Shown piece by piece: positions 3,259-29,588 of a stretch of 32,000 nucleotides of DNA (position 1 is the stretch's first letter; every line of letters begins with the position of its first letter). Made by a program: the position numbers and the translations under genes. The stretch comes from Candidatus Babelota bacterium (lineage in GTDB: Bacteria; Babelota; Babeliae; Babelales; Vermiphilaceae). The stretch lies in the NCBI GenBank assembly GCA_039809905.1, contig JBDHVY010000001.1, positions 1 to 32,000 of the forward strand, in the 5' to 3' direction. Under the pieces are notes generated by a model, which saw only the letters and a list, made by a program, of their open reading frames with translations, had not been told where the DNA came from and did not search any database.

Positions 3259-3340
3259 ACACAACCCTTTTTTTTATACTTTTCCCACCGTTTTTATGTA
3301 ACAAAAATAGAGTAATGGTGTCAATAAAAGGATCGATAAC

Positions 3341-6204: not shown

Positions 6205-6348
6205 TTAACTCTTTTCACGTTCCAAGGCTAAAGCACTTAAATAGAAACTAGAACGACCCATTGAATGGATAATAAGGATTAAAGCAGTCATAACAATTAA
6301 TACCATAAGAATTAGTGATCCAGAAGGATTTCTAGTCCCTTTTTTCAT
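6205..6348 (-). CDS. possible truncated minor pseudopilin (47 aa, GspK/PilX/ComGG-like N-terminal segment only)
   Basis: Below the ORF-track size cutoff. ATG at 6348 is preceded by GAGGAAAACAGTC and overlaps the end of the upstream pseudopilin gene by 17 nt. My translation is MKKGTRNPSGSLILMVLIVMTALILIIHSMGRSSFYLSALALEREKS. Too short for a complete pseudopilin, and the downstream 140 nt is closed in all frames. Confidence 0.3.
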   Translation of the reverse strand: MKKGTRNPSGSLILMVLIVMTALILIIHSMGRSSFYLSALALEREKS

Positions 6349-6841
6349 GACTGTTTTCCTCTTTTTTTAATGAAACATAGCAGGTAATCGGTTTTACATG
6401 AGCATATTGGGATGTCATAATAAGACTTATTCCGATAAGAACATCTCCATTCTTTTCAGTTGTAAAAATAAGATGGGCAATATCTTTAGCAATAATACTC
6501 ACAATTGTCTTATGCCACGTATGATCTTTATAAATACCCTCTCTTCTTTCGAGAGAATTTTGATAAAAACGCCACCCAATAGCAAAACCTTCCCTTTCCC
6601 ATATAAGTTCTTGTGGTGAAATTAATTTCCATGCATGTGTACCATTTCTCATCGAACGTATATCACGGACAAAAAAATCTGATGCAATATGAAGAGCTAC
6701 AATTGATTGATTTTTTCTCATAACAGCAAAAGAAGGAATAATGAATACAGTTATAATATGGCAGAAAAATAATGTAACTATAGAAAAAATCATAAGATAC
6801 ATAAGAAAAGATAATAATGAAAATCCTTTTTTATGATGCAT
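6332..6841 (-). CDS. pseudopilin-like protein (GspJ/ComGF-like) with atypical N-terminal methylation motif lacking Glu5
   Basis: 169 aa. MHHKKGFSLLSFLMYLMIFSIVTLFF resembles the prepilin leader G|F-x-L-x-E plus hydrophobic helix, but has Ser where the Glu is expected. 11-nt overlap with the upstream pseudopilin gene. Confidence 0.65.
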   Translation of the reverse strand: MHHKKGFSLLSFLMYLMIFSIVTLFFCHIITVFIIPSFAVMRKNQSIVALHIASDFFVRDIRSMRNGTHAWKLISPQELIWEREGFAIGWRFYQNSLERREGIYKDHTWHKTIVSIIAKDIAHLIFTTEKNGDVLIGISLIMTSQYAHVKPITCYVSLKKEENSHEKRD

Positions 6842-7100
6842 ATAATTCTCTATTATAGCCCCAATCTCTATTGCATGCTGACTGGGGACCCCAAATTAGG
6901 AGGTTTTTTGGTATTATTTTTTGTGAAAGTTTTTTTTCTGTTTTGTTACGCTTTGTAGAAAAATTTTCAATTTTTTTAAGCGCTTTCTGTTGCGTGCTAT
7001 GCACTTCAATTATATAATGGGTAATAATTAGAATGAAAAAAATTGACACAACCAAACCCATCATCAACTCAACAAGAAGGAATCCATTTTTAGTTTTCAT
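6831..7100 (-). CDS. prepilin-type N-terminal cleavage/methylation domain protein (minor pseudopilin)
   Basis: The track ORF starts at 7160. ATG at 7100 gives MKTKNG|FLLVELMMGLVVSIFFILII, a canonical type IV pilin / T2SS pseudopilin leader (G-F-x-L-x-E plus hydrophobic helix). 89 aa. Confidence 0.8.
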   Translation of the reverse strand: MKTKNGFLLVELMMGLVVSIFFILIITHYIIEVHSTQQKALKKIENFSTKRNKTEKKLSQKIIPKNLLIWGPQSACNRDWGYNRELYAS

Positions 7101-7190
7101 TTGATTATATTCTTTTAAGTTCTTTACTGAGTTTTTCATGCAGCATATAATAGACAACATGAAAGATATAATAATAATAAAAGGTACGCT

Positions 7191-11540: not shown

Positions 11541-12707
11541 ATGAAATTTTATATAAAAGTTATGGCGATCCTTGGAGCTCTAACTATCTATAACAGCAAC
11601 TATTCGAGTGAATTACCTGGTTTTATTCAAAAATATCATAGCTCTATTCCGTCTCTCGAATATGATTCAAATAAAAGCTTTTCTCCAAAAGATCAGGCTT
11701 CCATTATTGGAAACTATCTTTGTAAGTTTATTCCACAAATCAAAACTTTATCCTTGAATGGGCATGATAAATTAGAAAACAAACTTGAATATCTGATCAC
11801 TAATCAAAAGCAGATACAGCTTGTTATTTTAGGTTTTCCTTTTAAATCAACTAATCATGAAAAAAAATGTTTGAGCTCAGAAGCTGACTTGGGAGAATAT
11901 TTAGGACTTACTACGCTTAATCAACTTGTGTACAACATTAAATTATTATATCCAAATACCCATTGCGCTATTATCTCAGATGGTCTTGCCTATCATATCA
12001 ATAATTATGATCCTTCTTATGAAGAAATTCATAATTATCATGCAAGAATAAACGATTTAACAACTCATTTTAAAAATGTATCATTTATACCATGGAAAAT
12101 TAACAACAAGTTGGGTTCGTATCAAGAATTACAAGAAGCTGTTGCTGCTGTTCCATTAGAAAATGAGGAAAATAGCGATCAAAAGCGCTATCAAGAAATG
12201 AAAGCTTTTGCTTCTAGTGAATTCAAGTGTACTCATTGGGAAAATTTTTTTCTCAATAAAGCTCTTAATTCATATAATGAAAGACAACAGTTTGAACAAA
12301 AAGAACTAAAGCAAAAAAACAAAGATCAAGCAATCAAAACTGAAAAAAATACTCTCATTGCAGAAAATATGAAGTTGATTATTCCTCAGCTTGTATATAA
12401 AGGAAAACAGTTTTCTACTTTAGTAAGCACGCAGTGGCCTGATTATGATGAATGCATACGTCTTTCTGTGCACTGTGATAAAAATGTTGTTGATGTATCA
12501 ACCAAAATACCCATAAATATTATATATGGACATTCAGGAACACCATGGCATAATGCAATAGTCATTGATAATACTGATACGCAAGTGAAAGGATTTGCTA
12601 AAGATATTTTCAAAAAAAATGATCTCAATCTTTTAGCTAAGTCCAAAAAAACATTTTCGTTAAAAACTCCCGCAGGTATACTACCATTATCATATATTGC
12701 TCATTAA
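11541..12707 (+). CDS. DIT1/PvcA family protein (isonitrile synthase-like), paralogue 1
   Basis: 388 aa. LVILGFPFKSTNHEKKCLSSEADLGEYLGL...LLYPNTHCAIISDGLAY matches the conserved core of the pyoverdine/dityrosine biosynthesis family (PvcA: FPAKSPN..KVLG..PD.AE...Y.PGA...I.SDG.VF). Hydrophobic N-terminus MKFYIKVMAILGALTIYNS. AAGGA SD. Confidence 0.8.
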   Translation: MKFYIKVMAILGALTIYNSNYSSELPGFIQKYHSSIPSLEYDSNKSFSPKDQASIIGNYLCKFIPQIKTLSLNGHDKLENKLEYLITNQKQIQLVILGFPFKSTNHEKKCLSSEADLGEYLGLTTLNQLVYNIKLLYPNTHCAIISDGLAYHINNYDPSYEEIHNYHARINDLTTHFKNVSFIPWKINNKLGSYQELQEAVAAVPLENEENSDQKRYQEMKAFASSEFKCTHWENFFLNKALNSYNERQQFEQKELKQKNKDQAIKTEKNTLIAENMKLIIPQLVYKGKQFSTLVSTQWPDYDECIRLSVHCDKNVVDVSTKIPINIIYGHSGTPWHNAIVIDNTDTQVKGFAKDIFKKNDLNLLAKSKKTFSLKTPAGILPLSYIAH

Positions 12708-12719
12708 TACGGATTTATC

Positions 12720-13739
12720 ATGCACATTAAAAAAATAGTCATTATCTTTACGGTTGTTTGTTTATCATTTTTTTTACAAGAACATTCGTATGTACCAAAA
12801 AATCATGCTTTATGTGATAGCAAAACAATAAAAAATATAGTTAATATTTTTCAACAACATACGTTAACATATGATATTGATAAAAAAAGTGTTAACGATA
12901 CAGATATTGCATTACATATACGCACGATAGATGAATATGCAGAATTATCCAGAAAGCTTGCTTATTTTATCAAAGAAGAAAAACCAATTATTCTTACTAT
13001 GGTAGGATTTCCATATAAGTCATCTAATACACAGGATAAAGTCATATCTTCTTGTGCAGATGCCGCCGAACGATATTCACTGGTCTATCTACAAAATTTC
13101 TTAAACCACATTAAATCCATTTATAAACCTGGTATAAAACTGCGCATTTTTACTGATGGGATAGCATTTTGCGATATAGAACAGGTGCCAGATGATATTG
13201 TAATGCAATACGAAGATACACTAAAAATCATAACGCAGGATCTTCCTGATATAGAAATATGTACCATGCGTGATTTATGTTCAAAACAATCCCCTATAGA
13301 AATACGAAAAAAAATATCAAACATGTATCCATCTCTTGAAGAATTTCATACTATGCTTGAAAATGATAAAAAGTTACAGGATGACACCAATATTCTTACG
13401 CAAAGAATGGATTTTGAGTTAGCTCTTTTATCATTGAGTGATGAACAAATCGCAAATATTGGATTACAAGAAATGCACAGAAGTCTTCAATATAGCACTT
13501 TTTTGAAACAATTTCGCCCAGAAGAAACTATTTCATGCTCTGTACACTACCAAAAAGATCTTTCCAAAAAAATTGGATTGAAATTATCTGATTCATGCGT
13601 AACTGCATGGCATGGAGTTCTTGTTGAAACAAATGGTAATTTTATTATTGAACACTTAAAAGATATTGATCTATCAAAGTATCAACGAACAGAATGGATG
13701 GTGAATGGCGTATCACTTCCATACTTGAAAAATACATAA
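12720..13739 (+). CDS. DIT1/PvcA family protein (isonitrile synthase-like), paralogue 2
   Basis: 339 aa. ILTMVGFPYKSSNTQDKVISSCADAAERYSLVYLQNFLNHIKSIYKPGIKLRIFTDGIAFCD is a closer match to the PvcA/Dit1 core. Hydrophobic N-terminus MHIKKIVIIFTVVCLSFFL. Starts 12 nt after paralogue 1. Confidence 0.85.
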   Translation: MHIKKIVIIFTVVCLSFFLQEHSYVPKNHALCDSKTIKNIVNIFQQHTLTYDIDKKSVNDTDIALHIRTIDEYAELSRKLAYFIKEEKPIILTMVGFPYKSSNTQDKVISSCADAAERYSLVYLQNFLNHIKSIYKPGIKLRIFTDGIAFCDIEQVPDDIVMQYEDTLKIITQDLPDIEICTMRDLCSKQSPIEIRKKISNMYPSLEEFHTMLENDKKLQDDTNILTQRMDFELALLSLSDEQIANIGLQEMHRSLQYSTFLKQFRPEETISCSVHYQKDLSKKIGLKLSDSCVTAWHGVLVETNGNFIIEHLKDIDLSKYQRTEWMVNGVSLPYLKNT

Positions 13740-18942: not shown

Positions 18943-20715
18943 ATGTTGCACAAAATCTTCTTAAAACAATCCAGTATCTTGATGGCTGGTGCTACGTTGC
19001 TATCGTTTTCGTCTATCAAATCTGAAAATGATATATTAAGATCAAATCTCTTTGATGTTCGAGATAAAAATATTGGTGTTAATAACAGCCCCAATTCAGA
19101 TCTTAGTAATAGTTGCTTATCTGATTTGGCTGTTACTGGTGATACCGCAACCATTTTCCGTAATTCAGTGGCAGAACCATCCCTTGCTGTTAATCCCTTA
19201 AATAAAAAACAAGTAATAGCTGTATACGAACAAGATATTATAGGCAGCAACGAAATTGGCAATTTGGGTTCTTTAAGCATAGGTATTGCTCGTTCTGAAA
19301 ATGGTGGTAAAACCTGGATTACAAGTGATTCTTTAAACACTCAAATATGCAATGGTGGATTTGCACAAACTGTTGGCAATGCCCGTATCACCTATGCAAA
19401 TAATGGAATAGCATACTTAACTGCTACCTTTGCAAATGTTCAAAACAATCCGAATAACCTTAATCAATCAGGCGTTTTTGTATCACAATCAGAAGATAAT
19501 GGTAAAACATGGAGTTTTCCAATTATTTTGGATGCAAGTTCAAATAACTTAAATGATCAAACAAGTACTTCTCCATTCAGCACTATATCAAATGTTTCTG
19601 TAGATCCTAATAATGCAAATAATGTGTATGTTACTTGGGGACGCACTCCTAATGATGCTTCTTTAAGTTCTAATGCTATTATCAGTTTCTCAAGAGATGG
19701 CGGACTAACGTGGTCAGATAATGCCGTGTTATATAATCCATTTTTAGATACAACATTTGCAGCTATAAATAATGGTATTGCTAACAATATGAGCGTAACT
19801 AATAATACTATTATAACTCAGCCAAATGGTAATGTTTTAAATTTCATGACACGCACCTATGCAGCACCAGGAACAACTAACATGCAATTTGTTAATGATG
19901 TATGGCCATATCAATATCGTTTATTTGATATTGCATTTACCAGCTCAACTGATAATGGAGTAACATTTAATACAAGTGCACGAGTAGTGACGACTATTGA
20001 TGGTAATTCAACATTTACTGGTGGATATACGTATAGTGGTGCTGACATTACTGGTGGCGTTGGTGCACAAATAAGCACCGAAGGAAGCAATCAGTTTTTT
20101 GATGTTGCAATTAATCCAGAAAATGGTTATCTCTATGTAGCTTACCAAACAGGAGAGTTTACTGCTAACCAACTTCCTCAAATCGCTCTTGTTACTTCAC
20201 GCGATGGTGGTTTAACATGGTCTCAACCTGCACGCGTAAGTAGAACACCGGTTAATTCACCAAATCCTCAAGCATTTACCCCAGCTATTGCTATAGCAGA
20301 ATGTGGCGTTGTAGGAGTTCTGTATCAAGATTTCCGTAAATCTAATGTAAGCATTCCCACTACTAATACTAATACCAAAACAAATGTATGGTTTGCTCAG
20401 TATCAAGAAAAAAACAATCCTACTGGCGGTAGCACTGGCATAGGGTTAGATTTTGTTAATGAAGTGCTTGTTTCTAAGCATTCTTATAATATACAAACAG
20501 GACCTGCTGTTGAAGGTGGTATTTTAACTAATGGCAATTTTGCCAGCGTAGATGCTCTTGGTGATGATTTTTATGCCGCATATATTAAAACTAATAATAT
20601 TCAAATCATACCAGCACAACCGCTTGTTGATAATCCTGAAACAGAAACTATTTTGTTACTTGAAAACAATAGAAGAACATCTCCGTTCTTTAGCAGAATA
20701 GATGCAAAACATTAA
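18943..20715 (+). CDS. secreted BNR/Asp-box repeat beta-propeller protein (sialidase-like fold)
   Basis: 590 aa. Five Asp-boxes (S-x-D-x-G-x-T-W/F): SENGGKTW, SEDNGKTW, SRDGGLTW, STDNGVTF, SRDGGLTW. Leader MLHKIFLKQSSILMAGATLLSFSS. No clear FRIP catalytic motif seen (only IFRNS). Confidence 0.85.
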   Translation: MLHKIFLKQSSILMAGATLLSFSSIKSENDILRSNLFDVRDKNIGVNNSPNSDLSNSCLSDLAVTGDTATIFRNSVAEPSLAVNPLNKKQVIAVYEQDIIGSNEIGNLGSLSIGIARSENGGKTWITSDSLNTQICNGGFAQTVGNARITYANNGIAYLTATFANVQNNPNNLNQSGVFVSQSEDNGKTWSFPIILDASSNNLNDQTSTSPFSTISNVSVDPNNANNVYVTWGRTPNDASLSSNAIISFSRDGGLTWSDNAVLYNPFLDTTFAAINNGIANNMSVTNNTIITQPNGNVLNFMTRTYAAPGTTNMQFVNDVWPYQYRLFDIAFTSSTDNGVTFNTSARVVTTIDGNSTFTGGYTYSGADITGGVGAQISTEGSNQFFDVAINPENGYLYVAYQTGEFTANQLPQIALVTSRDGGLTWSQPARVSRTPVNSPNPQAFTPAIAIAECGVVGVLYQDFRKSNVSIPTTNTNTKTNVWFAQYQEKNNPTGGSTGIGLDFVNEVLVSKHSYNIQTGPAVEGGILTNGNFASVDALGDDFYAAYIKTNNIQIIPAQPLVDNPETETILLLENNRRTSPFFSRIDAKH

Positions 20716-20850: not shown

Positions 20851-21714
20851 ATGAAAAGAACATGGCATTATCTCATCATTATTTCTTTGATGGGAACCAT
20901 AATGGCACTAGAAGCAATGCTTACTACACAACAAGTAGCCAGAAGAGCTCCATCACAAACAGGTCGTCGTTTGATTTCAACAACTCCAGTTATGGCAGCA
21001 AAAAAACAACCAAAAGACAATACGCAAAACTTAAAAACACCCGGTGCCCCTAAAATAAAAAAATCTAAAACATTTGATAATTTAAGCGATAATTCCAATA
21101 ATCCAACGACTGTTTCTCAACCTCGCAAATCATCATGGTTATATCGTCTTTTTTTTGGTAAACCAATAGAAGAATCAAGAAGTGAATTAAGCGATCTTAT
21201 CGCTATGCCTACATTTAACAAAAATAATGTAGAAGAGGGAATAACATTAGTTAAAGAAATTAATTCAAAAAATCCAGCATATTTGAATGATAGCGGATTA
21301 CTTGATGAAATAGTACTTACAAGTTTTAATCTTCCGATTTTTTCAGAAAAACAAACTAATCTGATAACCTTAGCCAATTTTGTGGAAAGTCGTGATGGTC
21401 GTTTTAATAAAAGTATCGAATCATATATTGATCGTTATGAAAATTTAGTAGAAAGAGTATATCCACGATTACTGAGTGCAAAATTCAACAAAAAAGATCC
21501 TGTGGCGATAAAGCCTCGTTACAAAGCTGCTAAGCAGGTGATATTTATAGAAAATTTTTTTGATAGTCTTGATCAATTTTTAGGTAAATTTGTTCAAAAT
21601 GATTCGCAATTGTCAAAAAAACTAAAAGACATAACCAAAAAAAGAACGGTATTAAAAGAAGCCTTTATGAGAAAGGATGAAAAAAAGAAAAACGAAAGAT
21701 TAGCTACTGAATAA
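20851..21714 (+). CDS. secreted hypothetical protein (287 aa)
   Basis: AAGGA SD. Leader MKRTWHYLIIISLMGTIMALEA|ML, followed by a basic/polar low-complexity stretch. No recognisable domain. Confidence 0.8.
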   Translation: MKRTWHYLIIISLMGTIMALEAMLTTQQVARRAPSQTGRRLISTTPVMAAKKQPKDNTQNLKTPGAPKIKKSKTFDNLSDNSNNPTTVSQPRKSSWLYRLFFGKPIEESRSELSDLIAMPTFNKNNVEEGITLVKEINSKNPAYLNDSGLLDEIVLTSFNLPIFSEKQTNLITLANFVESRDGRFNKSIESYIDRYENLVERVYPRLLSAKFNKKDPVAIKPRYKAAKQVIFIENFFDSLDQFLGKFVQNDSQLSKKLKDITKKRTVLKEAFMRKDEKKKNERLATE

Positions 21715-21730
21715 AAGATTGTTAGTTAAG

Positions 21731-21762
21731 AAAAAGAACAGGCCGTAGCCTGTTCTTTTTTT
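21731..21762. terminator. bidirectional terminator between convergent genes
   Basis: AAAAAGAACAGGC (21731-21743) / GCCTGTTCTTTTT (21748-21760) with a CGTA loop. Confidence 0.9.
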
Positions 21763-21764
21763 GG

Positions 21765-21953
21765 TTATTCGATTGGCGGCATTGGAGGACGTTTTCCACG
21801 AAAAACACTACTAATAAGGGATAAAATAAACAATACTATGAATATGAAGAATAATATTTTTGCGATATCCATAGACATGCCTTCTACCGTGTAAAATCCA
21901 AAGTAGCCAGCAATGATTGAAAGAATAAGAAACGTAATAACTAAATGCAACAT
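21765..21953 (-). CDS. UPF0391/DUF1328-family small membrane protein
   Basis: 62 aa with two hydrophobic helices. MLHLVITFLILSIIAGYFGF...DIAKILFFIFIVLFILSLI resembles YtjA-type proteins. AAGGAG SD. Confidence 0.75.
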   Translation of the reverse strand: MLHLVITFLILSIIAGYFGFYTVEGMSMDIAKILFFIFIVLFILSLISSVFRGKRPPMPPIE

Positions 21954-22059
21954 GCAACACTCCTTAAAAATAATAAAATTTGTATAACAACTAACATAAA
22001 ACTAAAACAAAACAATAAGCAATTTTTTCTTAATGATAATTCATTATGAGAAAATACTT

Positions 22060-23106
22060 TCAACCTAGGCGCACTTTAGAAAAAAACTTTTTCGTTCGGG
22101 ACTTATTAATCTGTTCGTTTTTTGCTAATTCTGCTAACTCTTTTACTGTTTTTGCTCCATTCTTGAGTAATATTTCCTCAATTTTCTTAACAAAATCTTC
22201 ACCATATTTACTTTCGAGCAATTTCTTTTCTCCCTCAAACACATCTCGAACTGTTCTGACCACCACTGTTTCAATTTCAGGGTTCATCATCATCACAAAA
22301 CCATCCATAGTTTCGATTGCTTGTATGTTTTCTTGGTTTATATCACAAAGTTCACTGGCGATCAGTGAGTTGAATGATGGTAAACTTCCACAGAGTAAAG
22401 CCTGTATGATGAGAGAAGCTCCATTGTTTTTAATATAAGACTGTGTCTTTTCATGATTAATAAATACATCAAGCGTTTGTGTATCGTTATTATTTATTAC
22501 AACATTAAGCCCATGTAACAACGAGGTATCATCTGAAAGATTTTCTGGAAATTCGATAAGAGCTTTTTTAACACGTTCATTATTTCGCGATATACATCCA
22601 ATTAAAAATGGATTAATCGTGCATTCAGAAGGATCTCCCATACATCTGTGTTTTATGAAATGTTTTTTTAACGAACACATCCTTTCATTCTTAAGGTCAA
22701 TAATTTCATAAGGATAAACTGCATAATTAGTCCCAGGGATTCTGTACCATCTATGATTAACAGCACTATTACTACTCAAAATTTGTGCAATCTCATAGTT
22801 ACTATCATATAAAGCCGTAATCAAAATGCTTTTATAATCTCTTTTGTATACATATGGATTATTACAATCAATAAAACCAAGAGATGGCTGACAGAACGAA
22901 AAAAAGATACTTAATTGTTTTGACGTTTTACGTAATACATTGATTTCTTTAGGATGAAGCAATGCAAAAATAATTTTGCGCTCATCAGCACGCTCTTGAA
23001 GTAATAAACTATCCAATACACCACTTGGCTTATCCATTGAAAAAGAAACAGCAGTCATTAAAAGTGCTAATGACTGCTGTTTTAGTAACGAAAAAAATAA
23101 ATTCAT
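22060..23106 (-). CDS. F-box-like protein with degenerate ankyrin-like repeats, paralogue 1
   Basis: 348 aa. AAAGGAAAG SD. Leader ...LALLMTAVSFS|MD. F-box-like ERKIIFALLHPKEINVLRKTSKQL. C-terminal NPFLIGCISRNNERVKKAL / LLHGLNVVINNNDTQTLDVFI helical repeats align with paralogue 2. Confidence 0.7.
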   Translation of the reverse strand: MNLFFSLLKQQSLALLMTAVSFSMDKPSGVLDSLLLQERADERKIIFALLHPKEINVLRKTSKQLSIFFSFCQPSLGFIDCNNPYVYKRDYKSILITALYDSNYEIAQILSSNSAVNHRWYRIPGTNYAVYPYEIIDLKNERMCSLKKHFIKHRCMGDPSECTINPFLIGCISRNNERVKKALIEFPENLSDDTSLLHGLNVVINNNDTQTLDVFINHEKTQSYIKNNGASLIIQALLCGSLPSFNSLIASELCDINQENIQAIETMDGFVMMMNPEIETVVVRTVRDVFEGEKKLLESKYGEDFVKKIEEILLKNGAKTVKELAELAKNEQINKSRTKKFFSKVRLG

Positions 23107-23271
23107 AACTTTCCTTTTGCTTTATACCATTTTTTTTCAAAAACATATATTTAAGCATAAAAACAAAACAGAAAAGTTTATATATTTTTTCTTAATGATA
23201 AATCATTTTAAATTTTCTTTATTTCTTTTTTTGTTTTACATAATAAGCAAAAGCATTATGCGACGACTTTT

Positions 23272-24369
23272 TTATTTCTTATTCTTAATGCTTTTTTTAG
23301 TCTTTTTTTCATCCAAGCATTTAAATTTTTTTAATATCCCTAATTGTTCTTTGTCAATTACCGGAACTGGGGGATTAAACTTCGATAATTCTTTTTTTCT
23401 TTTACCAACTACTATGTTTAAACATCGATAATATCGAGGCAAATTATTCTCATTGCTATTTATTAAATCGTGGTGATAAAGTTTTGTCAATTGAGCGCAA
23501 CTGCCATCTTTTATAGGACTTTTTTTATCTAAAAACTTGTAAAAATAATCCATATTTTTTTCTATACTAATTCTTTCCATCTTGCATTGTGTTAAAAATG
23601 CTTTGTAAGAATTATTTATTAAAAACATAACTTTATCGCTTCCATTAAATAGAGCGCATTGCAGTAATCGCACAGACATAGAACTCATCTTTTGTCTATT
23701 TTCCCTGTCTTTCAAAAGATTATATAAAGATTTGATATCATTGTTTTGAATAAGAATATGTAATCCTAGTTCAAAATTATAATTGCGCAAATCTTTGGGA
23801 ATGGCTTTGAATGCTGTTTCAACCAAAGCAGAATTGCCTATAATGCATGAAGCTATGAATGGGTTTACTGGTTCTGATTTTTTATTCTTATTAATACATA
23901 CAATTTTAAATGCATCTTGTGTGTTATCAGGAAAAATCCATCCTATACGCTCAAATTTTCCGGATATGGAATAAAAACACTCATTCTGGAGCTTGTGTTC
24001 GGATACATACGTAATAAATTCAAGTTTTTTATCTCTAGATGTGAAAGTACCTTCATGTTCACAAATAGCTTGAATAATAATACGCGCAAAATCACGCTTA
24101 CTTGCGCATAAAGCTTTACAGATCATAAAATCTTGTACTGTTTGCCGAGATAGCTCATCACTGAAATATTTGTTTGTTAAACGCAAAGCATTTTTTGTAG
24201 AAGGATCAAGACTAGGCAACATATAACGAATTATCTCTTTAGGAAAAAAATCAAAAACGCCATTTCCTTGAGACGAATCCATTGACAATATAATAGAAGA
24301 AAAAAAAGTAACAAAGAATATAAAAGGTATTCGAAAATAAGAGGTAAGCATCTGTGTATAGTCTTTCAT
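23272..24369 (-). CDS. F-box-like protein with degenerate ankyrin-like repeats, paralogue 2
   Basis: 365 aa. FFPKEIIRYMLPSLDPSTKNALRLTNKYFSDEL fits the F-box pattern LPxEIxxxIxxxLxxxxxxxLxLVxKxW. NPFIASCIIGNSALVETAF / ELGLHILIQNNDIKSLYNLL are ankyrin-like. The start could instead be Met7. Confidence 0.7.
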   Translation of the reverse strand: MKDYTQMLTSYFRIPFIFFVTFFSSIILSMDSSQGNGVFDFFPKEIIRYMLPSLDPSTKNALRLTNKYFSDELSRQTVQDFMICKALCASKRDFARIIIQAICEHEGTFTSRDKKLEFITYVSEHKLQNECFYSISGKFERIGWIFPDNTQDAFKIVCINKNKKSEPVNPFIASCIIGNSALVETAFKAIPKDLRNYNFELGLHILIQNNDIKSLYNLLKDRENRQKMSSMSVRLLQCALFNGSDKVMFLINNSYKAFLTQCKMERISIEKNMDYFYKFLDKKSPIKDGSCAQLTKLYHHDLINSNENNLPRYYRCLNIVVGKRKKELSKFNPPVPVIDKEQLGILKKFKCLDEKKTKKSIKNKK

Positions 24370-24651
24370 GTTGAGAGTTATTTATCATTTGCATATAGCT
24401 TACAGTGTTTTATGTTTTTTGTAAAAATTTCTTATGGAATTTTAGCTCTTTTGCTCTATAAAATAATGCATTTTTCTTTAACATCACAACCCTTTTACAT
24501 AAATGATTAACATCAAGCTCCGTTAATCATGGGATATATTTATTAAACGATCAACGATATATTTATGCAAAAATAAAAAATGCGATGTATAAAGGCTTTT
24601 CTTTCCATTTCTATGTCAACAAACTTAAATTTTTTAACATGCTTTAAAAAA

Positions 24652-24710
24652 ACTTAAAAAAAATGCCACAATCAATGAAATTTTTATTCTTTTTTTCATC
24701 AATTGTGGCA
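24652..24710 (-). terminator. candidate terminator of the 24868-25527 gene
   Basis: Imperfect 17-bp inverted repeat TGCCACAATCAATGAAA (24664-24680) / TTTCATCAATTGTGGCA (24694-24710), 15/17, followed on the minus transcript by T8. Confidence 0.55.
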
Positions 24711-24867
24711 AACGTTTTTTACTAATGCCTAGAAAAATATTGCTGGAATAATTCTTGCAAAATAAGGTTAAATTTAAATGCGTTTTTGTTTTTTTTAAAA
24801 AAATATTTTTATTTTTTTTTTTTATAAAAACAAAAATTGTGATATATGCGAACTCATTTTTTTATCT

Positions 24868-25527
24868 TCACTCTTTCGACAATCGCACTCGCTCTTCTTC
24901 TATTTCTCGTGCTCGTTTACGGGTGAGCTCATCTCGCTCTTTTTGTTCTTGTGTTTTTGCCTCTCGTCGTATTGTAGCAATTCGCTCTTGCTCAGCTTCT
25001 TTAAGCTGTCGATCCCAAAACGCAGCTGTTTTTGCTTTTTCTAATTCTAATTCTGCTTGTTCATCTGCAGCAATTAACTTGTTGACTTCTCCCATATGCT
25101 CAGTTTGCATGTCACTTGCCGCTTTCTTTTTAGCTTCACGCATTTTTTGAGTTTGAAACAGATCAATAATAAAACCTTTAAAATTTTGCCAACCTAAAGA
25201 AATCCTTGTCATTAAATTATTTTGTTGAGGTTCAAAAGAATTGATAGGCACTGCATTTTTGGGCTCCTTTTTGCTGAACTCAGTTACTGGCTGGCTAGGC
25301 ACAAGCCCAAGTTTTTTAAATTCTTCATTTATCTTTTCTTCAGCTTCTTTTCTTTTTTTTTCTTGCAATCGTTGTTCTTCTCCACGTGAAGGATAAGGCC
25401 AACGAACATATCCTCTTCTTCCTACAGTGGTTGCTCTTTGCGCCGATCTTGTTGCTAGCATTGCATAGGAATTGATAGCACCAAAAACAGATACTCCTGC
25501 GATACTGTACATAACATATTTTTTCAT
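24868..25527 (-). CDS. secreted K/E-rich coiled-coil hypothetical protein
   Basis: The track ORF starts at 25539. ATG at 25527 follows GGGAG. Leader MKKYVMYSIAGVSVFGAINSYA|ML. The C-terminal half is charged heptad-like sequence (EAKKKAASDMQTEHMGEVNKLIAADEQAELELEKAK...). Confidence 0.8.
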   Translation of the reverse strand: MKKYVMYSIAGVSVFGAINSYAMLATRSAQRATTVGRRGYVRWPYPSRGEEQRLQEKKRKEAEEKINEEFKKLGLVPSQPVTEFSKKEPKNAVPINSFEPQQNNLMTRISLGWQNFKGFIIDLFQTQKMREAKKKAASDMQTEHMGEVNKLIAADEQAELELEKAKTAAFWDRQLKEAEQERIATIRREAKTQEQKERDELTRKRAREIEEERVRLSKE

Positions 25528-25654
25528 AACATCTCCCATTATTTTTATTACATCCTCAAGTATATAATAAAAACAAATATGAGCTCAATAAACTATTGTT
25601 ATTTATTTTTGGCCAAAAATACAATTATGATATATCACGATATGCTATAATCCA

Positions 25655-25692
25655 AACAAAAAACCCTTTTATCGTTGTATAGATAAAAGGAT
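25655..25692 (-). terminator. rho-independent terminator
   Basis: CCTTTTATC (25665-25673) / GATAAAAGG (25682-25690). The minus transcript continues GTTTTTTGTTT. Confidence 0.75.
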
Positions 25693-25715
25693 TTTATAAA
25701 AAATTTAAGTCTAAA

Positions 25716-26303
25716 TTATGAGTTCGCTGCTTTCATTTGCTCTTGTTTTTTAAATGCTCTTACTTTTCTATTAAAAGCAAGCCCTTCTTCTCGCTTAAGC
25801 AATAGGCATTCTCCACTGACAGCATTGTTATAAAGATTGGTCATTGTACCTTTTAGCTTTACTATTGCATCACGCTGAAATGAAGTTATTTTACCTAATG
25901 CAACTTTATAATCTAATTTTGCATCAGTATTTTTCGTCATAAAACTACGAAAAACTTTAACTGTATTCACTATACATGGATTAGCAAAAGAATTAACTAA
26001 AAAACCAAGATATCCTGAATGCCCCAAAGCATCAATATCACAGTCGTTAAGTTTTGCTCCTTCAGAACGAAGCATATTGATATGTAATCCTGGTGCTTTA
26101 TCTATAATCGCATCATAGAGCACTGTATGGCCATCTTCATCTATGTCATTAATCCTACTCGTATCTTTTGGAGAGCGTTTTGGGCCGAAAGGTTTTATTT
26201 TTATTGCCTTAGTAATGAGCCGAGCAGGATTCATACCATGCACTAAAGCCATATTACCGAATAAAGCAACAATAATTGCTAATAATATTTTAATTTTTTT
26301 CAT
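25716..26303 (-). CDS. secreted protein with one ankyrin-like repeat
   Basis: The track ORF starts at 26333. ATG at 26303 follows TAGGAGG. Leader MKKIKILLAIIVALFGNMALVHG|MN. DEDGHTVLYDAIIDKAPGLHINMLRSEGAKLND fits the ANK consensus (D.dG.T.L..A......v..Ll..GA..n). Confidence 0.75.
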   Translation of the reverse strand: MKKIKILLAIIVALFGNMALVHGMNPARLITKAIKIKPFGPKRSPKDTSRINDIDEDGHTVLYDAIIDKAPGLHINMLRSEGAKLNDCDIDALGHSGYLGFLVNSFANPCIVNTVKVFRSFMTKNTDAKLDYKVALGKITSFQRDAIVKLKGTMTNLYNNAVSGECLLLKREEGLAFNRKVRAFKKQEQMKAANS

Positions 26304-26442
26304 AATGCCTCCTAAAAATTGCCTATTATTCATATTTAATTATGCGAGAATATTTGCAATTTGTCAAATGCGGCTATTTTGATGCTTTATAGCATTATTC
26401 CCGCGCTAATTGCTCGTTTTTCTTGATCTGCTCAAGCTGAGC

Positions 26443-27369
26443 TTAGACATCCAACAAATTACTCATTTTTCTTTCAGGAGAAGCTTCCAATCGCTTAATT
26501 CGCTCAATATCTCCTAAATAAAGCTGGGTAGTAGTAGGAGCAGTGTGACGCATGGCAAGTTGTACTTCATAAAGCGAAGCCCCTGCTTGCATAGAAAGAA
26601 CACCAAAAGTGTGCCGAAGACTGTGGGCAGTAATACGCTTACTATCAAATCCTGCCGCACGCAAACGACTTTTAATAATGCGAGAAAGAGAATATATCGT
26701 TAAACGCTTACCATAATTACGATCACTTAAAGAAATAAAGAGCGGTTCTCGCTCACTTTTTACCACTCGCATTTGAAGATATTCATATAACGAGGTAAGT
26801 GTTTGTGGAGTTAGCAATACAAATTCATCTTTACTTGATCGCCCTTTTCCGTGAATCCATAATAACATTTCACCTCGCTGCTCATACATATCTTCTAATA
26901 ATGCTGATGCAACTTCTTTTAACCGCAATCCAGTACGCACCAAAATATTAATCAATGCAAAATCACGTTTACCGCACAGATCAGAACGATCAATTGAATC
27001 AAGCAATTTTTTAAGTGCATCAATTGATAACGATTCTTTTTGATGACTTTTTGAATAGCGTTTAATCCCTTTTACTCCTCGTGAAATATTAGGATACAAA
27101 TCACTTTCTTCTGTCCATAAAAAAAATCGCCGAACTACTACAATATACATTGCTTTAGTATATGAGCTGAGCTGTTTTGAATCGAGCCAGAATTTATATG
27201 ATAAAATTGTTTCTTTCTTAGGACTCAGTATTTGTTTTTCTTTGCACCAACGAGCAAATTGAACCAATGCATTGAGATACGATGAACGAGATGCAAGGGA
27301 AATATCTTGCGATGCAATAAAAGGATGGATAAATTCATCTATATTAAATGGTGTTGAAGTAGCATTCAT
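26443..27369 (-). CDS. tyrosine site-specific recombinase (XerC/XerD / phage-integrase family)
   Basis: The track ORF starts at 27402. ATG at 27369 follows AAAAGGA. Catalytic residues lie in TGLRLKEV (Arg), AHSLRHTFG (His-x-x-Arg) and AMRHTAPTTTQLYL (His...Tyr). N-terminal SAM-like core-binding domain. Confidence 0.9.
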   Translation of the reverse strand: MNATSTPFNIDEFIHPFIASQDISLASRSSYLNALVQFARWCKEKQILSPKKETILSYKFWLDSKQLSSYTKAMYIVVVRRFFLWTEESDLYPNISRGVKGIKRYSKSHQKESLSIDALKKLLDSIDRSDLCGKRDFALINILVRTGLRLKEVASALLEDMYEQRGEMLLWIHGKGRSSKDEFVLLTPQTLTSLYEYLQMRVVKSEREPLFISLSDRNYGKRLTIYSLSRIIKSRLRAAGFDSKRITAHSLRHTFGVLSMQAGASLYEVQLAMRHTAPTTTQLYLGDIERIKRLEASPERKMSNLLDV

Positions 27370-27408
27370 AAAAATCCTTTTTCTATACAGATATGATAAC
27401 AAAAAAAA

Positions 27409-27445
27409 TTGACCTATAACAGCATTGTTATGTAATCTATAGGTC
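27409..27445. promoter_or_regulatory. nested inverted repeat overlapping a sigma70-like promoter in the recombinase / zinc-finger divergent spacer
   Basis: Outer inverted repeat GACCTATA (27411-27418) / TATAGGTC (27438-27445). Inner inverted repeat ATAACA (27416-27421) / TGTTAT (27426-27431). TTGACC (27409-27414), 18-nt spacer, TAATCT (27433-27438) on the plus strand. Confidence 0.35.
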
Positions 27446-27491: not shown

Positions 27492-28208
27492 ATGAAAAAA
27501 ATAGTAGCATATTCTTACCTATTCTTTTTTGCATGTTCGATTCAGCAACATTTATACAGTTCCATGCAAAAACCAAAACAAAAAGATCTCATGGTGGCTC
27601 TACAGGCAATGAAACGACCAAGAACAGAATATCTTGCAACACAAAACCCAAAAAAAGAAGATCTTGTACCAGCACTGCAAGCAATGAAAAGACCAAGACC
27701 TGAGTTTGTTGTAAATGAAAAAGCACCCAAAAGACAAAAAATAACAGCCAAAACTTTTGAACATGATAAAAATAAACATATAGAAAAGAAACGATATCCA
27801 TGCAATTTATGCCCTTCATCTTTTGATCAATCAAAATCTCTTGAAATACATACGAGAATTCATACAGGAGAAAGACCCTTCTCGTGTACTGAGTGCACAG
27901 ATTCGTTTATACGCAAGGAACATCTGACAAGACATATGAATATTCATACAGGAAAAAAGCCTTATGAATGTGCAACCTGTTTCAAATCATTTGCACTAAA
28001 GCAAACTCTCAAAGAACATATAAGAATTCATACAGGAGAAAAGCCATATAAGTGTGATTTATGCCCAAGATCATTTACGAAACTATACGGTTTAAATATT
28101 CATCGTGATACCCATAACGATGAAAAAAAATTCCCCTGTAATCTGTGTGATGAAAGATTTACCACGCATGGTAGTCGATCAAAGCATATAGAAAGAAAAC
28201 ATTCTTAA
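27492..28208 (+). CDS. eukaryote-type C2H2 (Krueppel-like) zinc-finger protein with five tandem fingers, Sec-like leader and NLS-like repeats
   Basis: 238 aa. Five C-x2-C-x12-H-x3/4-H units joined by HTGERPF / HTGKKPY / HTGEKPY linkers. N-terminus MKKIVAYSYLFFFACSIQQHLYSS|MQ, then two 23-aa repeats containing ALQAMKRPR. Stop lies 3 nt before the murD ATG. Confidence 0.9.
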   Translation: MKKIVAYSYLFFFACSIQQHLYSSMQKPKQKDLMVALQAMKRPRTEYLATQNPKKEDLVPALQAMKRPRPEFVVNEKAPKRQKITAKTFEHDKNKHIEKKRYPCNLCPSSFDQSKSLEIHTRIHTGERPFSCTECTDSFIRKEHLTRHMNIHTGKKPYECATCFKSFALKQTLKEHIRIHTGEKPYKCDLCPRSFTKLYGLNIHRDTHNDEKKFPCNLCDERFTTHGSRSKHIERKHS

Positions 28209-28211
28209 ATT

Positions 28212-29588
28212 ATGAAAACATTATATCAACACAGGCGCTTTGGTATTTGGGGATTTGGAATAGTGGGTAAAGCTGCAGCATGTTATCTGCATGAACAAGG
28301 ATATAACATAAGCATAATGGATAAGCGCACGCCAACACCAGAAGAACAACTTTTTTTACAAGAAAAAAAGATTACCTGGTACACAGAGCATGAACAAGAA
28401 TTATTTTTTAATTCTTCTGATTTCATTATTCCTTCTCCTGGTATTAACATAAGCCAAATGTGTTACGCGACACATAAAACAAAATGGATATCTGAGTTAG
28501 ATTTCTTTTATCAGAATTTTCACAAACCAATTATTGCCATTACGGGCAGCATTGGTAAAACTTCTACCACACATATCCTTGCAAATATTTTTAAAGAATT
28601 ATCCATTCCTATTGCAGTTGGTGGAAATATTGGAACACCAACTTTTGATCTTATTAATCAACAGAACAATGTTGATTACGCATTATTAGAAGTTTCAAGC
28701 TTTCAGTTAATGCATTGCACCGTTTTTGCACCAACAATTGCGATATGGACTAATTTTTATCCTAATCATCTTGATTATCACGAAACAGAAGATGAATATT
28801 TTTTGGCAAAATATAAAATTATAGAACAACAATCATCTCATACTTTTTCTTGTGTACCATTATCATTTCACAAAAGAATTCCTCACCCACCAACAAACCA
28901 TACCCGAGCATATTTCATATCTCATGAGCCAGAATTTGACCTTTCTATTTTGAATGACAATGAAGCACTGTATTACCAAAAAAATAATTTTATATGGCAA
29001 TATAGATCGGGAAATCACACTCCCCTTTTATTACTTACATCAGAAATACGCAATCTTTCTTTTATTGAAAATATAATCATAATTACTGCAATATGCGACA
29101 CAATGAATTTAGACATTGCAGCATTACAAAAAGTTGCCGTAAGCACTGCATTACCTGCTCATCGATTAGAAAACATTGGAAGTATAAATAATATAACTTT
29201 TTATAACGATTCTAAGGCAACAACTACGGCTTCCACTCTTGCTGCAGTTGAAAAATTAAAATCTTATCCTCTTCATCTTTTTCTTGGTGGATTAAGCAAA
29301 GGTGTTGATCGCGCACCTTTTATTGCTCAGTTAAAAGGCCACACAAAACATATTTATTGTTTTGGAGCAGAAGCAGAACAATTATATAGTATGTGTATAA
29401 ACAATAACATTTCTGCTATGCACTATGCTACTCTTTCTGATGCAATTGAAGCGTGTTTGATTCTTGCAGAACCTCATGATTATGTATTATTTTCACCGGC
29501 AGGAAGCAGCTATGATTTATATAAAAATTATGAAGAACGTGGCAATCATTTCAAAGAATTGATTGCCAGTCTTAGCCCCATCCTTTAA
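28212..29588 (+). CDS. murD: UDP-N-acetylmuramoylalanine--D-glutamate ligase
   Basis: 458 aa. N-terminal Rossmann-like GFGIVGKAAA, ATP-binding ITGSIGKTSTT, GGNIGTP, C-terminal Mur-ligase domain (FYNDSKATT). Confidence 0.95.
   Translation: MKTLYQHRRFGIWGFGIVGKAAACYLHEQGYNISIMDKRTPTPEEQLFLQEKKITWYTEHEQELFFNSSDFIIPSPGINISQMCYATHKTKWISELDFFYQNFHKPIIAITGSIGKTSTTHILANIFKELSIPIAVGGNIGTPTFDLINQQNNVDYALLEVSSFQLMHCTVFAPTIAIWTNFYPNHLDYHETEDEYFLAKYKIIEQQSSHTFSCVPLSFHKRIPHPPTNHTRAYFISHEPEFDLSILNDNEALYYQKNNFIWQYRSGNHTPLLLLTSEIRNLSFIENIIIITAICDTMNLDIAALQKVAVSTALPAHRLENIGSINNITFYNDSKATTTASTLAAVEKLKSYPLHLFLGGLSKGVDRAPFIAQLKGHTKHIYCFGAEAEQLYSMCINNNISAMHYATLSDAIEACLILAEPHDYVLFSPAGSSYDLYKNYEERGNHFKELIASLSPIL

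Follow-up and report, generated by a model that had tools for sequence, protein, structure and literature searches.

C2H2 zinc-finger proteins with Sec-type leaders in Dependentiae: a candidate family of secreted DNA-reading effectors

Bacterial C2H2 (Cys2His2) proteins of the Ros/MucR type are cytoplasmic and hold a single atypical finger within a larger globular domain. A 2017 analysis recognised only one bacterial effector family known to target host DNA directly, citing the TAL effectors (PMC5570926). Among fungal proteins, Magnaporthe oryzae MoHTR3 has been reported in the nucleus of the host cell, while its relatives MoHTR1 and MoHTR2 are reported to recognise effector-binding elements in the promoters of host genes (PMC10189765). 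Here we describe a gene found at positions 27492-28208 of the forward strand in a 32,000-nucleotide (nt) stretch of contig JBDHVY010000001.1 (the whole of which we call the window), whose 238-amino-acid (aa) product consists of a leader, a basic region and five C2H2 zinc fingers. We consider it rather probable that this protein is a Sec-exported effector that would enter the nucleus of a protist host and bind DNA there, with export, import and binding all predicted from sequence. The Dependentiae, to which we assign the window, are a widespread phylum known mostly from metagenome data, with few cultured isolates (PMC6561590).

The protein: fingers, leader and basic region

The open reading frame (ORF) 27492..28208(+), described in an initial annotation made without database searches, was borne out as a complete C2H2 protein gene by the ORF list, the sequence, Pfam and an identical gene on an independent Logan assembly. 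The five classical fingers reported there were recovered by Pfam zf-H2C2_2 (PF13465; E = 5.6e-36; 121.3 bits against a gathering cut-off of 40, in five stretches) and zf-C2H2 (PF00096; E = 3.3e-22; 78 bits against a gathering cut-off of 25.2). All on the plus strand, they comprise finger 1 (residues 102-124, 27795..27863; helix positions -1/2/3/6 = Q/K/S/I), finger 2 (residues 130-152, 27879..27947; R/E/H/R), finger 3 (residues 158-180, 27963..28031; L/Q/T/E), finger 4 (residues 186-208, 28047..28115; K/Y/G/I) and finger 5 (residues 214-237, 28131..28202; T/G/S/K). Fingers 1-4 display the spacing C-X2-C-X12-H-X3-H and the usual hydrophobic core (an aromatic residue before the first Cys, Phe after the second and Leu at helix position +4), and finger 5 has H-X4-H and Arg for Leu at +4. 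The RxEHxxR helix of finger 2 is Zif268-like, a textbook reader of a G-rich triplet under the recognition code; it is presumably the only such helix in the array, and we take the code to give weak readings for the other fingers. Of the linkers, HTGERPF, HTGKKPY and HTGEKPY are present as first reported, but the fourth, THNDEKKF, is degenerate (NDEKK after finger 4). The stretch HRDTHNDEK is conserved in orthologues.

Pfam, PDB sequence matches and the predicted structure all agree with the earlier view that these fingers are of eukaryote type rather than of Ros/MucR type. Membership of the latter family was rejected, ROS_MUCR not being among the Pfam families listed at E <= 0.01 and the array consisting of five classical fingers in tandem. 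Among PDB sequences, ZNF568, PRDM9, CTCF and Aart match best, and a synthetic consensus finger likewise matches the window protein (1.5e-21). The best 120 database matches are mostly metazoan zinc-finger proteins (ZNFs), 25-50% identical over the fingers only; as this similarity is at the level of the framework, no eukaryotic donor lineage can be named. In an AlphaFold2 model built on a 26-row alignment (mean predicted local distance difference test score, pLDDT, of 81), each finger is predicted to form the E-E-H (beta-beta-alpha) pattern at pLDDT 93-98. Foldseek superimposed this model on DNA-bound CTCF ZnF2-7 with a root mean square deviation of 1.4 A over 137 columns, and on Aart and ZNF410 with 1.9 A and 2.0 A respectively (probability 1.00; 136-147 aligned columns across the three). 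The model thus predicts the fold and an array geometry resembling that of DNA-bound proteins; DNA binding itself is inferred.

The 24-aa leader noted initially was confirmed by direct reading as residues 1-24 (27492..27563, +), with Met25 directly after it. Its layout is that of a Sec (type I) signal, with a basic n-region (MKK), a hydrophobic h-region (IVAYSYLFFFACSI; criterion 7-15 residues) and a polar c-region (QQHLYSS), and AlphaFold2 predicts residues 2-25, i.e. the leader, to be helical. Residues M1, K2, L10, F12, C15, I17, Y22, S23 and M25 are invariant among orthologues. Across the family, from about 20 loci, a hydrophobic leader runs directly into Met in 24 of 26 genes (a slash marks the junction: ..LNA/MKRAR, ..LINA/MKRTR, ..SYSA/MQPKK), the proteins being only about 30% identical overall. 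Retention of the leader across such diverged genes indicates that it is translated and under selection, and argues against Met25 as the sole start. Good cleavage sites occur in most paralogues (VSNA/M, LINA/M, PVAA/M). Two apparently leaderless orthologues, P0123 and P0124 (contig genes L117 110-952 and L118 505-1005), were rejected as such: in-frame leaders lie upstream and the short forms are a gene-calling artefact. A second finger gene stands in tandem immediately upstream on each of these contigs.

Between the leader and finger 1 lies a basic region (residues 25-101; 27564..27794, +) that is predicted to be disordered, with mean pLDDT values of 45-60 in ten-residue blocks over residues 41-100, values below 50 at residues 46-55, 57-67 and 83-86, and a short predicted helix at 30-40. 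The tandem repeats described in this region were confirmed, with a period of 25 aa (75 nt) in place of 23 aa: the two units, KQKDLMVALQAMKRPRTEYLATQNP and KKEDLVPALQAMKRPRPEFVVNEKA (27576..27725, +), share 69% nucleotide identity. Tandem Repeats Finder left this 75-nt N-terminal repeat unscored. The number of units varies among orthologues, from one (L042) through two (the window and L071) to three (L088 and L102).

Three basic patches occur here on the plus strand: KRPR (residues 41-44; 27612..27623), which fits the pattern K-K/R-X-K/R; KRPRP in the second unit (residues 66-70; 27687..27701); and PKRQKI (residues 79-84; 27726..27743), in which P79, K80, Q82, K83 and I84 are invariant in orthologues. 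KRPRP is identical to the constitutive C-terminal nuclear localisation signal (NLS) of adenovirus E1a (PMC2289585). QAMKRP and P-K-x-Q-K-I are invariant among orthologues, as are the zinc ligands. KRPR was found nine times in 24 family proteins (1.49 per thousand aa, kaa) and not once in 709 other ORFs from the same loci (237 kaa), against 0.009 per kaa expected from composition, so that the motif is not a composition effect; KR.R is 16-fold enriched in the family. The resemblance to monopartite NLSs that had been pointed out therefore holds, for a motif that is family-specific and includes KRPRP. Motifs of the classical monopartite type are thus present and conserved, and may direct nuclear import.

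The junction of leader and Met is also found outside the finger family. Among leader-like ORFs, a small residue followed by Met within 16 aa of the hydrophobic core was seen in 31% of 307, compared with 9.7% of 154 controls, and Met reaches a frequency of 5-8% at offsets 5-7 after the core against a background of 1.85%. Such junctions occur in the window at 7191, 20851, 22060(-), 23272(-), 24868(-), 25716(-) and 27492, and in many ORFs of loci L001-L110, in forms such as ..ALEA/M, ..NSYA/M, ..LVHG/M and ..LNA/M. We read this junction as a general feature of the exported-looking proteins of this lineage; it might have arisen by fusion of a leader onto the original start codon, or reflect dual initiation, or meet a requirement that the mature protein begin with Met, as eukaryotic proteins do, once inside the host. 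In eight of 94 junction proteins the sequence continues as an Arg-rich, acid-free stretch resembling a mitochondrial presequence (1.1% for random 20-aa windows). Examples in the window are ..NSYA/MLATRSAQRATTVGRRGY and ..ALEA/MLTTQQVARRAPSQTGRRL (ORFs 20851-21714(+) and 24868-25539(-)), and others were found in L043, L062, L064 and L069. This pattern suggests nested targeting, in which the leader would be removed exactly at the Met that starts a eukaryotic sorting signal, NLS-like in the finger proteins (..NA/MKRPR).

The gene is native to its chromosome. The window encodes RuvC, DnaB, ribosomal protein L9, ArgR, a class I aminoacyl-tRNA synthetase, MurD, FtsW and ThyX at a guanine plus cytosine (GC) content of 29-38%, and the closest relatives of its MurD all come from metagenome-assembled genomes of Dependentiae/TM6/Babeliales (best 61-63% identity); the window belongs to a chromosome of this group. 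Codon usage resembles that of the neighbours, as had been claimed: GC (0.338), GC at third codon positions (GC3, 0.213) and synonymous-codon likelihood (-0.924) all fall near the middle of the spread shown by the window's other 21 genes (GC3 0.17-0.28; likelihood -0.85 to -1.06). The stop codon does stand 3 nt from murD, the TAA ending at 28208 and the murD ATG lying at 28212. A contig of 28 kb from an independent assembly (Logan, SRR27308757) also encodes the exact protein, with recombinase, ZnF, murD, ftsW and thyX in unchanged order and with identical junctions, and orthologues with the same neighbours occur in several unrelated JGI and ENA metagenomes. Independent assembly, native codon usage and these orthologues substantiate the initial judgement that contamination is unlikely.

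The family, its slot and its diversification

The family comprises at least 26 genes and is restricted to one clade. Had the nearest homologues formed a broad bacterial family with a non-DNA role, the initial annotation would have counted this against a host-directed role; they form instead a tiny clade-restricted family among the 1.84 billion cluster representatives scanned. An exhaustive HMMER scan of those representatives with the N-terminal 100 aa returned only four true relatives, the fifth match (P0121) being rejected as a spurious eukaryotic repeat protein, and a word-index search with the N-terminal 101 aa gave no match. The only source name in the collection is 'uncharacterized Zn-finger protein'. 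Orthologues sharing the N-terminal module carry eight (L071), six (L088), nine (L102), five (L042/P0125), five (P0122), five (P0123) and three (P0124) fingers.

The finger gene of the window occupies a slot bordered on the left by an Xer-like tyrosine recombinase (26443..27402, -; probable ATG 27369; Phage_integrase 2.1e-20), divergent from it, and on the right by murD (28212..29588, +; Pfam Mur_ligase_M/C and MurD-like_N), which is followed by ftsW (FTSW_RODA_SPOVE) and thyX (Thy1). Among 40 MurD-anchored loci, C2H2 genes were found only in the three closest relatives, always in this slot, with one finger gene in L001, three in L003 and five in L002 (one of them frameshifted); related genomes thus hold 0-5 finger genes between recombinase and murD. 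The recombinase was then used as an anchor in metagenomes, yielding 75 loci with recombinases 55-93% identical to that of the window. ORFs with two or more fingers lay beside the recombinase, on either side, in 17 of the 75; the recombinase of the finger-bearing loci was 80-93% identical to that of the window, and none of the loci below about 77% bore such ORFs. In L043 the slot is empty, recombinase (91%) and murD (MurD 69%) being only a few tens of nucleotides apart, and the slots of L062 and L064 are likewise empty. Absence from such close relatives marks the finger gene as accessory and not as a core regulator.

The genes arrayed in the slot are paralogues rather than unrelated cassettes. 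Integron-like cassette capture was considered and rejected: the NCBIfam integron-integrase model reached 33 bits over a partial stretch (cut-off 265), compared with 113-124 bits for the best NCBIfam models, which are of XerA/XerD type, and the recombinase, besides being Xer-like, adjoins murD even where the slot is empty and in distant Dependentiae. Also set aside were metagenome matches on long contigs (P0048, P0050, P0056, P0061, P0091 and others), which lack leaders and look eukaryotic. Three further metagenome proteins (P0020, P0041 and P0046) have leaderless arrays of 5-7 fingers and a conserved C-terminal domain of about 170 aa (..HVVVEVDEHQH..YNPHAF..), and are unrelated to the Dependentiae family beyond the fingers.

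Two architectures were distinguished. The first, to which the window protein, L002a, L002b and L003b belong, has a long basic N-terminal region and 5-9 contiguous fingers without a tail; L002a, L002b and L003b carry AQKCPRP repeats. In the second the linker is short, the fingers number 1-7, and the protein ends in a conserved acidic-hydrophobic motif, DPxLLEW[IL]xxL, with variants DPNLLEWIERL, DDPLLLEWLKIL, DLSEWLECL, GDLLDWLDLIKCS and AAFLQWIEQ; the window protein has no such tail. Tail-bearing members were located in L001 (5250-5972), L002 (5279-5998), L003 (3307-4287 and 5264-5992), L046, L048, L052, L059, L081 and L109. Only 11 of 979 ORFs have the tail and all 11 are finger proteins; a general secretion signal was therefore rejected in favour of a family-specific module. 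By analogy, the tail resembles acidic activation or cofactor-binding motifs of eukaryotic transcription factors.

The array itself varies rapidly. L071, the closest orthologue, is only 49% identical to the window protein, compared with 93% for the flanking recombinase and 70% for MurD. L088 99-998(-) and L102 21-1172(-) are the same allele except for one 252-nt indel (3 x 84 nt, i.e. three fingers) and five mismatches. Finger DNA is minisatellite-like: at a lag of 84 nt its self-identity reaches 0.685 (L102) and 0.517 (the window), compared with about 0.25 when the lag is slightly shorter or longer. In recent finger duplicates (at least 80% nucleotide identity, n = 7 pairs), differences fall at helix position +6 in six pairs and at +3 in four. 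Orthologous first, penultimate and last fingers are 0.25-0.37 identical at helix positions, compared with 0.44-0.53 at non-ligand framework positions, and across 66 unique fingers the highest entropies among the 28 positions are those of -1 (3.75 bits) and +6 (3.69 bits). This variation at recognition positions supports, without proving, positive selection. Diversification by 84-nt unequal recombination together with substitution at recognition positions would fit the tracking of host targets. The 84-nt periodicity, the gain and loss of fingers and the variable recognition positions recall the evolution of PRDM9 and the KRAB-ZNFs.

Proposed function and competing explanations

In the favoured interpretation, in which an obligate protist parasite exports by Sec an effector that acts in the host nucleus, translation from ATG 27492 would give a pre-protein whose Sec-type leader would be cleaved on export near S24/M25. 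The exit of the mature protein from the bacterium is a matter of speculation; it might use a filament-like system of type II or type IV, or the outer-membrane vesicles that have been proposed for Chromulinavorax. In Chromulinavorax destructans, also of the Dependentiae, signal peptides were reported in 44% of coding sequences and in 78% of ankyrin-repeat proteins, Sec was proposed as the route and vesicles were suggested as carriers (PMC6561590). Within the host cytosol the disordered basic region (KRPR, KRPRP, PKRQK) would act as a classical NLS for importin-dependent entry, and the five TGEKP-linked fingers would then lie in the major groove over some 15 bp of DNA. As the window protein has no other domain, it would most likely act by occupancy, as a repressor, as a competitor or via its disordered region; more speculatively, paralogues with the DPxLLEW[IL]xxL tail might be activators. 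The family would derive from an array of eukaryote-type fingers that has long been adapted in codon usage to the genome that now hosts it, and the slot would have come to hold 0-5 tandem copies subject to finger gain and loss.

We extend this only tentatively to the family as a whole, in a wider proposal that may well be right but that we stop short of calling probable. A captured eukaryotic polydactyl array would have become a secreted, reprogrammable family of DNA-reading effectors of protist-infecting Dependentiae, a bacterial C2H2 counterpart of the TAL effectors, equipped with NLS repeats or activation-like tails, amplified in tandem at a hot spot and re-targeted through finger gain and loss and through recognition residues. 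It would be one case of a rule by which a leader is cut at a Met that begins a eukaryotic sorting signal.

Several observations weigh against the nuclear effector. To our knowledge, Dependentiae lack any known dedicated translocation system, and the zinc-ligand cysteines could be oxidised in the periplasm. The cleavage site is imperfect, a cut before Met25 giving Ser at -1 and Tyr at -3 (one residue earlier would give Leu at -3 and Ser at -1), and the public gene calls for P0123 and P0124, from two gene callers, begin at the internal Met after the leader. A scan for sigma-70 promoters upstream on the plus strand found none, though such a scan is uninformative for this phylum; it also placed one weak terminator-like site inside the finger gene. 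Lys-rich motifs are common in AT-rich genomes, and for the less strict K[KR].[KR] the enrichment falls to 3.6-fold; the excess variability at recognition positions is modest and drawn from small samples (seven duplicate pairs). Finger 5 carries Arg at the core position +4. Finally, C2H2 arrays can bind RNA or proteins as well as DNA.

This last capacity underlies an alternative in which a secreted, host-directed effector would not read host nuclear DNA, its fingers binding host RNA or proteins or acting in the cytoplasm. A WT1-RNA complex does occur among the structural matches (rank 49), finger 5 is atypical in its Arg at +4 and its H-X4-H, and no effector domain is attached; nonetheless, three canonical TGEKP-type linkers, a predicted array geometry that matches DNA complexes, variation concentrated at -1, +3 and +6, and conserved, family-specific NLS-like motifs lead us to regard this as unlikely. 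The target might also be DNA elsewhere, either mitochondrial or belonging to a giant virus or to a competing symbiont in the same host. Such an explanation would accommodate the remodelling of host mitochondria by Dependentiae (PMC6561590), the presequence-like mature N-termini of neighbouring leader-bearing proteins, and a rapid diversification that an arms race with viruses could also produce. The mature N-terminus of the finger protein, however, has KRPR-type motifs and not a presequence, there is no specific pointer to a viral target, and we think the explanation improbable.

The position of the gene 3 nt upstream of murD raises the question of whether it encodes a cytoplasmic transcription factor of the bacterium itself, translated from Met25 and perhaps regulating the murD-ftsW operon, the more so as a Met always follows the leader and was chosen as the start of P0123 and P0124. 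We give this a similarly small probability, because the leader retains its frame and hydrophobicity in 24 of 26 diverged genes, close relatives with an intact murD have nothing in the slot, copy number ranges over 0-5 with finger number polymorphic, and the leader-then-Met junction recurs in many exported proteins unrelated to this one. By itself a Sec leader takes a protein no further than the periplasm, and with five Zn sites per protein the borrowed finger modules could serve there or in the envelope in metal buffering or as a structural element; metal storage would leave the TGEKP linkers, the variable helices, the NLS-like repeats and the acidic tails of paralogues unexplained, which makes this role very improbable. 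That the best database matches of the fingers are metazoan ZNFs might even suggest an assembly chimera or eukaryotic contamination. The identical gene and junctions on an independent assembly, the orthologues with the same neighbours in several unrelated metagenomes, and the native codon usage of an intron-free gene 3 nt from murD effectively exclude both.

Neighbouring genes and comparison with known systems

An A8 run and a hairpin occupy the intergenic stretch 27401..27445, with arms GACCTATA (27411-27418) and TATAGGTC (27438-27445); read on the minus strand, the hairpin comes first and a T-run follows it, a short way upstream of where the recombinase starts. A conserved ATAACAAAAAAAA run and then a hairpin stand at the same position in L045, L054, L057, L062, L069 and L071. 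Stems differ among loci yet stay complementary (GACCTATA/TATAGGTC; ACGTGCTAA/TTAGCACGT; ACGTCCTAA/TTAGGACGT; GAGGTGTGTAA/TTACACACCTC), L045, L057 and L069 showing such different but complementary stems in the same layout. The element is probably a terminator or attenuator.

Five leader-bearing proteins without a Pfam family at E < 0.001 are encoded in a run at 20851-26333; with the finger gene added, the neighbourhood seems rich in effectors. Below threshold, ORF 22060-23106(-) matches Ank_2 (E = 0.003), and its relative in L003 (856-1908, -) is just over the F-box cut-off (20.7 against 20.5 bits); an F-box or ankyrin identity for the neighbours at 22060-24369 was rejected, their own Pfam support being sub-threshold only. 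Two small ORFs, 6332-6841(-) and 6831-7160(-), have prepilin-type N-termini (KNG/FLLVELMMG.. and KKG/FSLLSFLM..) and weak, sub-threshold matches to the minor pilins or pseudopilins ComGD, ComGF and HpsC (E 5e-4 to 7e-3); they may be components of a type IV filament or of an apparatus resembling type II secretion, and would then be relevant to how the protein is exported. Elsewhere in the window, two tandem DIT1_PvcA-family genes (pyoverdine/dityrosine biosynthesis; 11541-12707(+) and 12720-13739(+); E about 1e-32 to 1e-34) encode proteins with hydrophobic N-termini, an unexpected pair in a parasite with a reduced genome. Hydrophobic N-termini are also found in a 922-aa protein with a C-terminal Peptidase_S74 (endosialidase chaperone) domain (496-3264, -) and a 590-aa BNR/sialidase-like protein (18943-20715, +).

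In spacing, hydrophobic core, TGEKP linkers, predicted fold and array geometry, the fingers are those of eukaryotic Krueppel-type ZNFs such as ZNF568, PRDM9, CTCF and Zif268. Unlike these, the window protein is bacterial, has a Sec-type leader and lacks KRAB, SCAN, BTB and SET domains, and the identity of 40-49% is confined to the framework. With Ros/MucR it shares a bacterial Cys2His2 zinc site. Other host-associated bacteria also carry eukaryote-type domains. The 'C2H2-type zinc finger protein' P0004 of Endozoicomonas shows 43% identity across the fingers and has neither leader nor basic repeats, and Kistimonas genomes have been described, at the level of annotation, as enriched in zinc-finger proteins (PMC12491435). 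Compared with these Endozoicomonadaceae proteins, the Dependentiae family is defined by a leader followed by Met, by KRPR repeats or an LLEW tail, and by its fixed slot.

No description of the family was returned by full-text literature searches that combined C2H2, zinc or zinc finger with the names Dependentiae, TM6, Babela and Babeliales, or C2H2 with nucleomodulins or bacterial effectors. The DNA-binding module and the mode of evolution proposed here for a eukaryote-like effector or nucleomodulin would accordingly be new among those described for bacteria. If the proposal is true, intracellular bacteria can repurpose the scaffold of a host transcription factor, and the finger arrays offer natural examples of rapid re-targeting as well as a way to study how Dependentiae manipulate their hosts and perhaps which hosts these are. 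The idea is directly testable, since the specificity of C2H2 fingers can be determined in vitro and the genomes of candidate hosts scanned for matching sites. Leaders followed by Met and by NLS-like or presequence-like N-termini may also serve as a rule for predicting effectors, and their destinations in the host, across the phylum.

With the TAL effectors of Xanthomonas and Ralstonia the family shares the concept of a variable-length array of DNA-reading repeats that is accompanied by an NLS (putative in the finger proteins) and, among the paralogues described above, by an acidic tail at the C-terminus. TAL effectors have repeats of 33-35 aa, type III export and a plant host, whereas the finger family has 28-aa fingers, a Sec-like export signal and a protist host; membership was rejected on the 28-aa C2H2 repeats and the Sec-like N-terminus, and the likeness is one of proposed function only. 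If true, the finger family would represent a second, independent solution to the targeting of DNA, derived from captured eukaryotic C2H2 fingers. The predicted layout of signal peptide, NLS and C2H2 fingers is that of Magnaporthe oryzae MoHTR1, MoHTR2 and MoHTR3 (PMC10189765), a likeness set by layout alone. Those proteins are fungal and leave by eukaryotic secretion, whereas the bacterial protein of the window carries five fingers in tandem. By analogy, MoHTR1-3 would be its closest experimentally studied functional counterparts.

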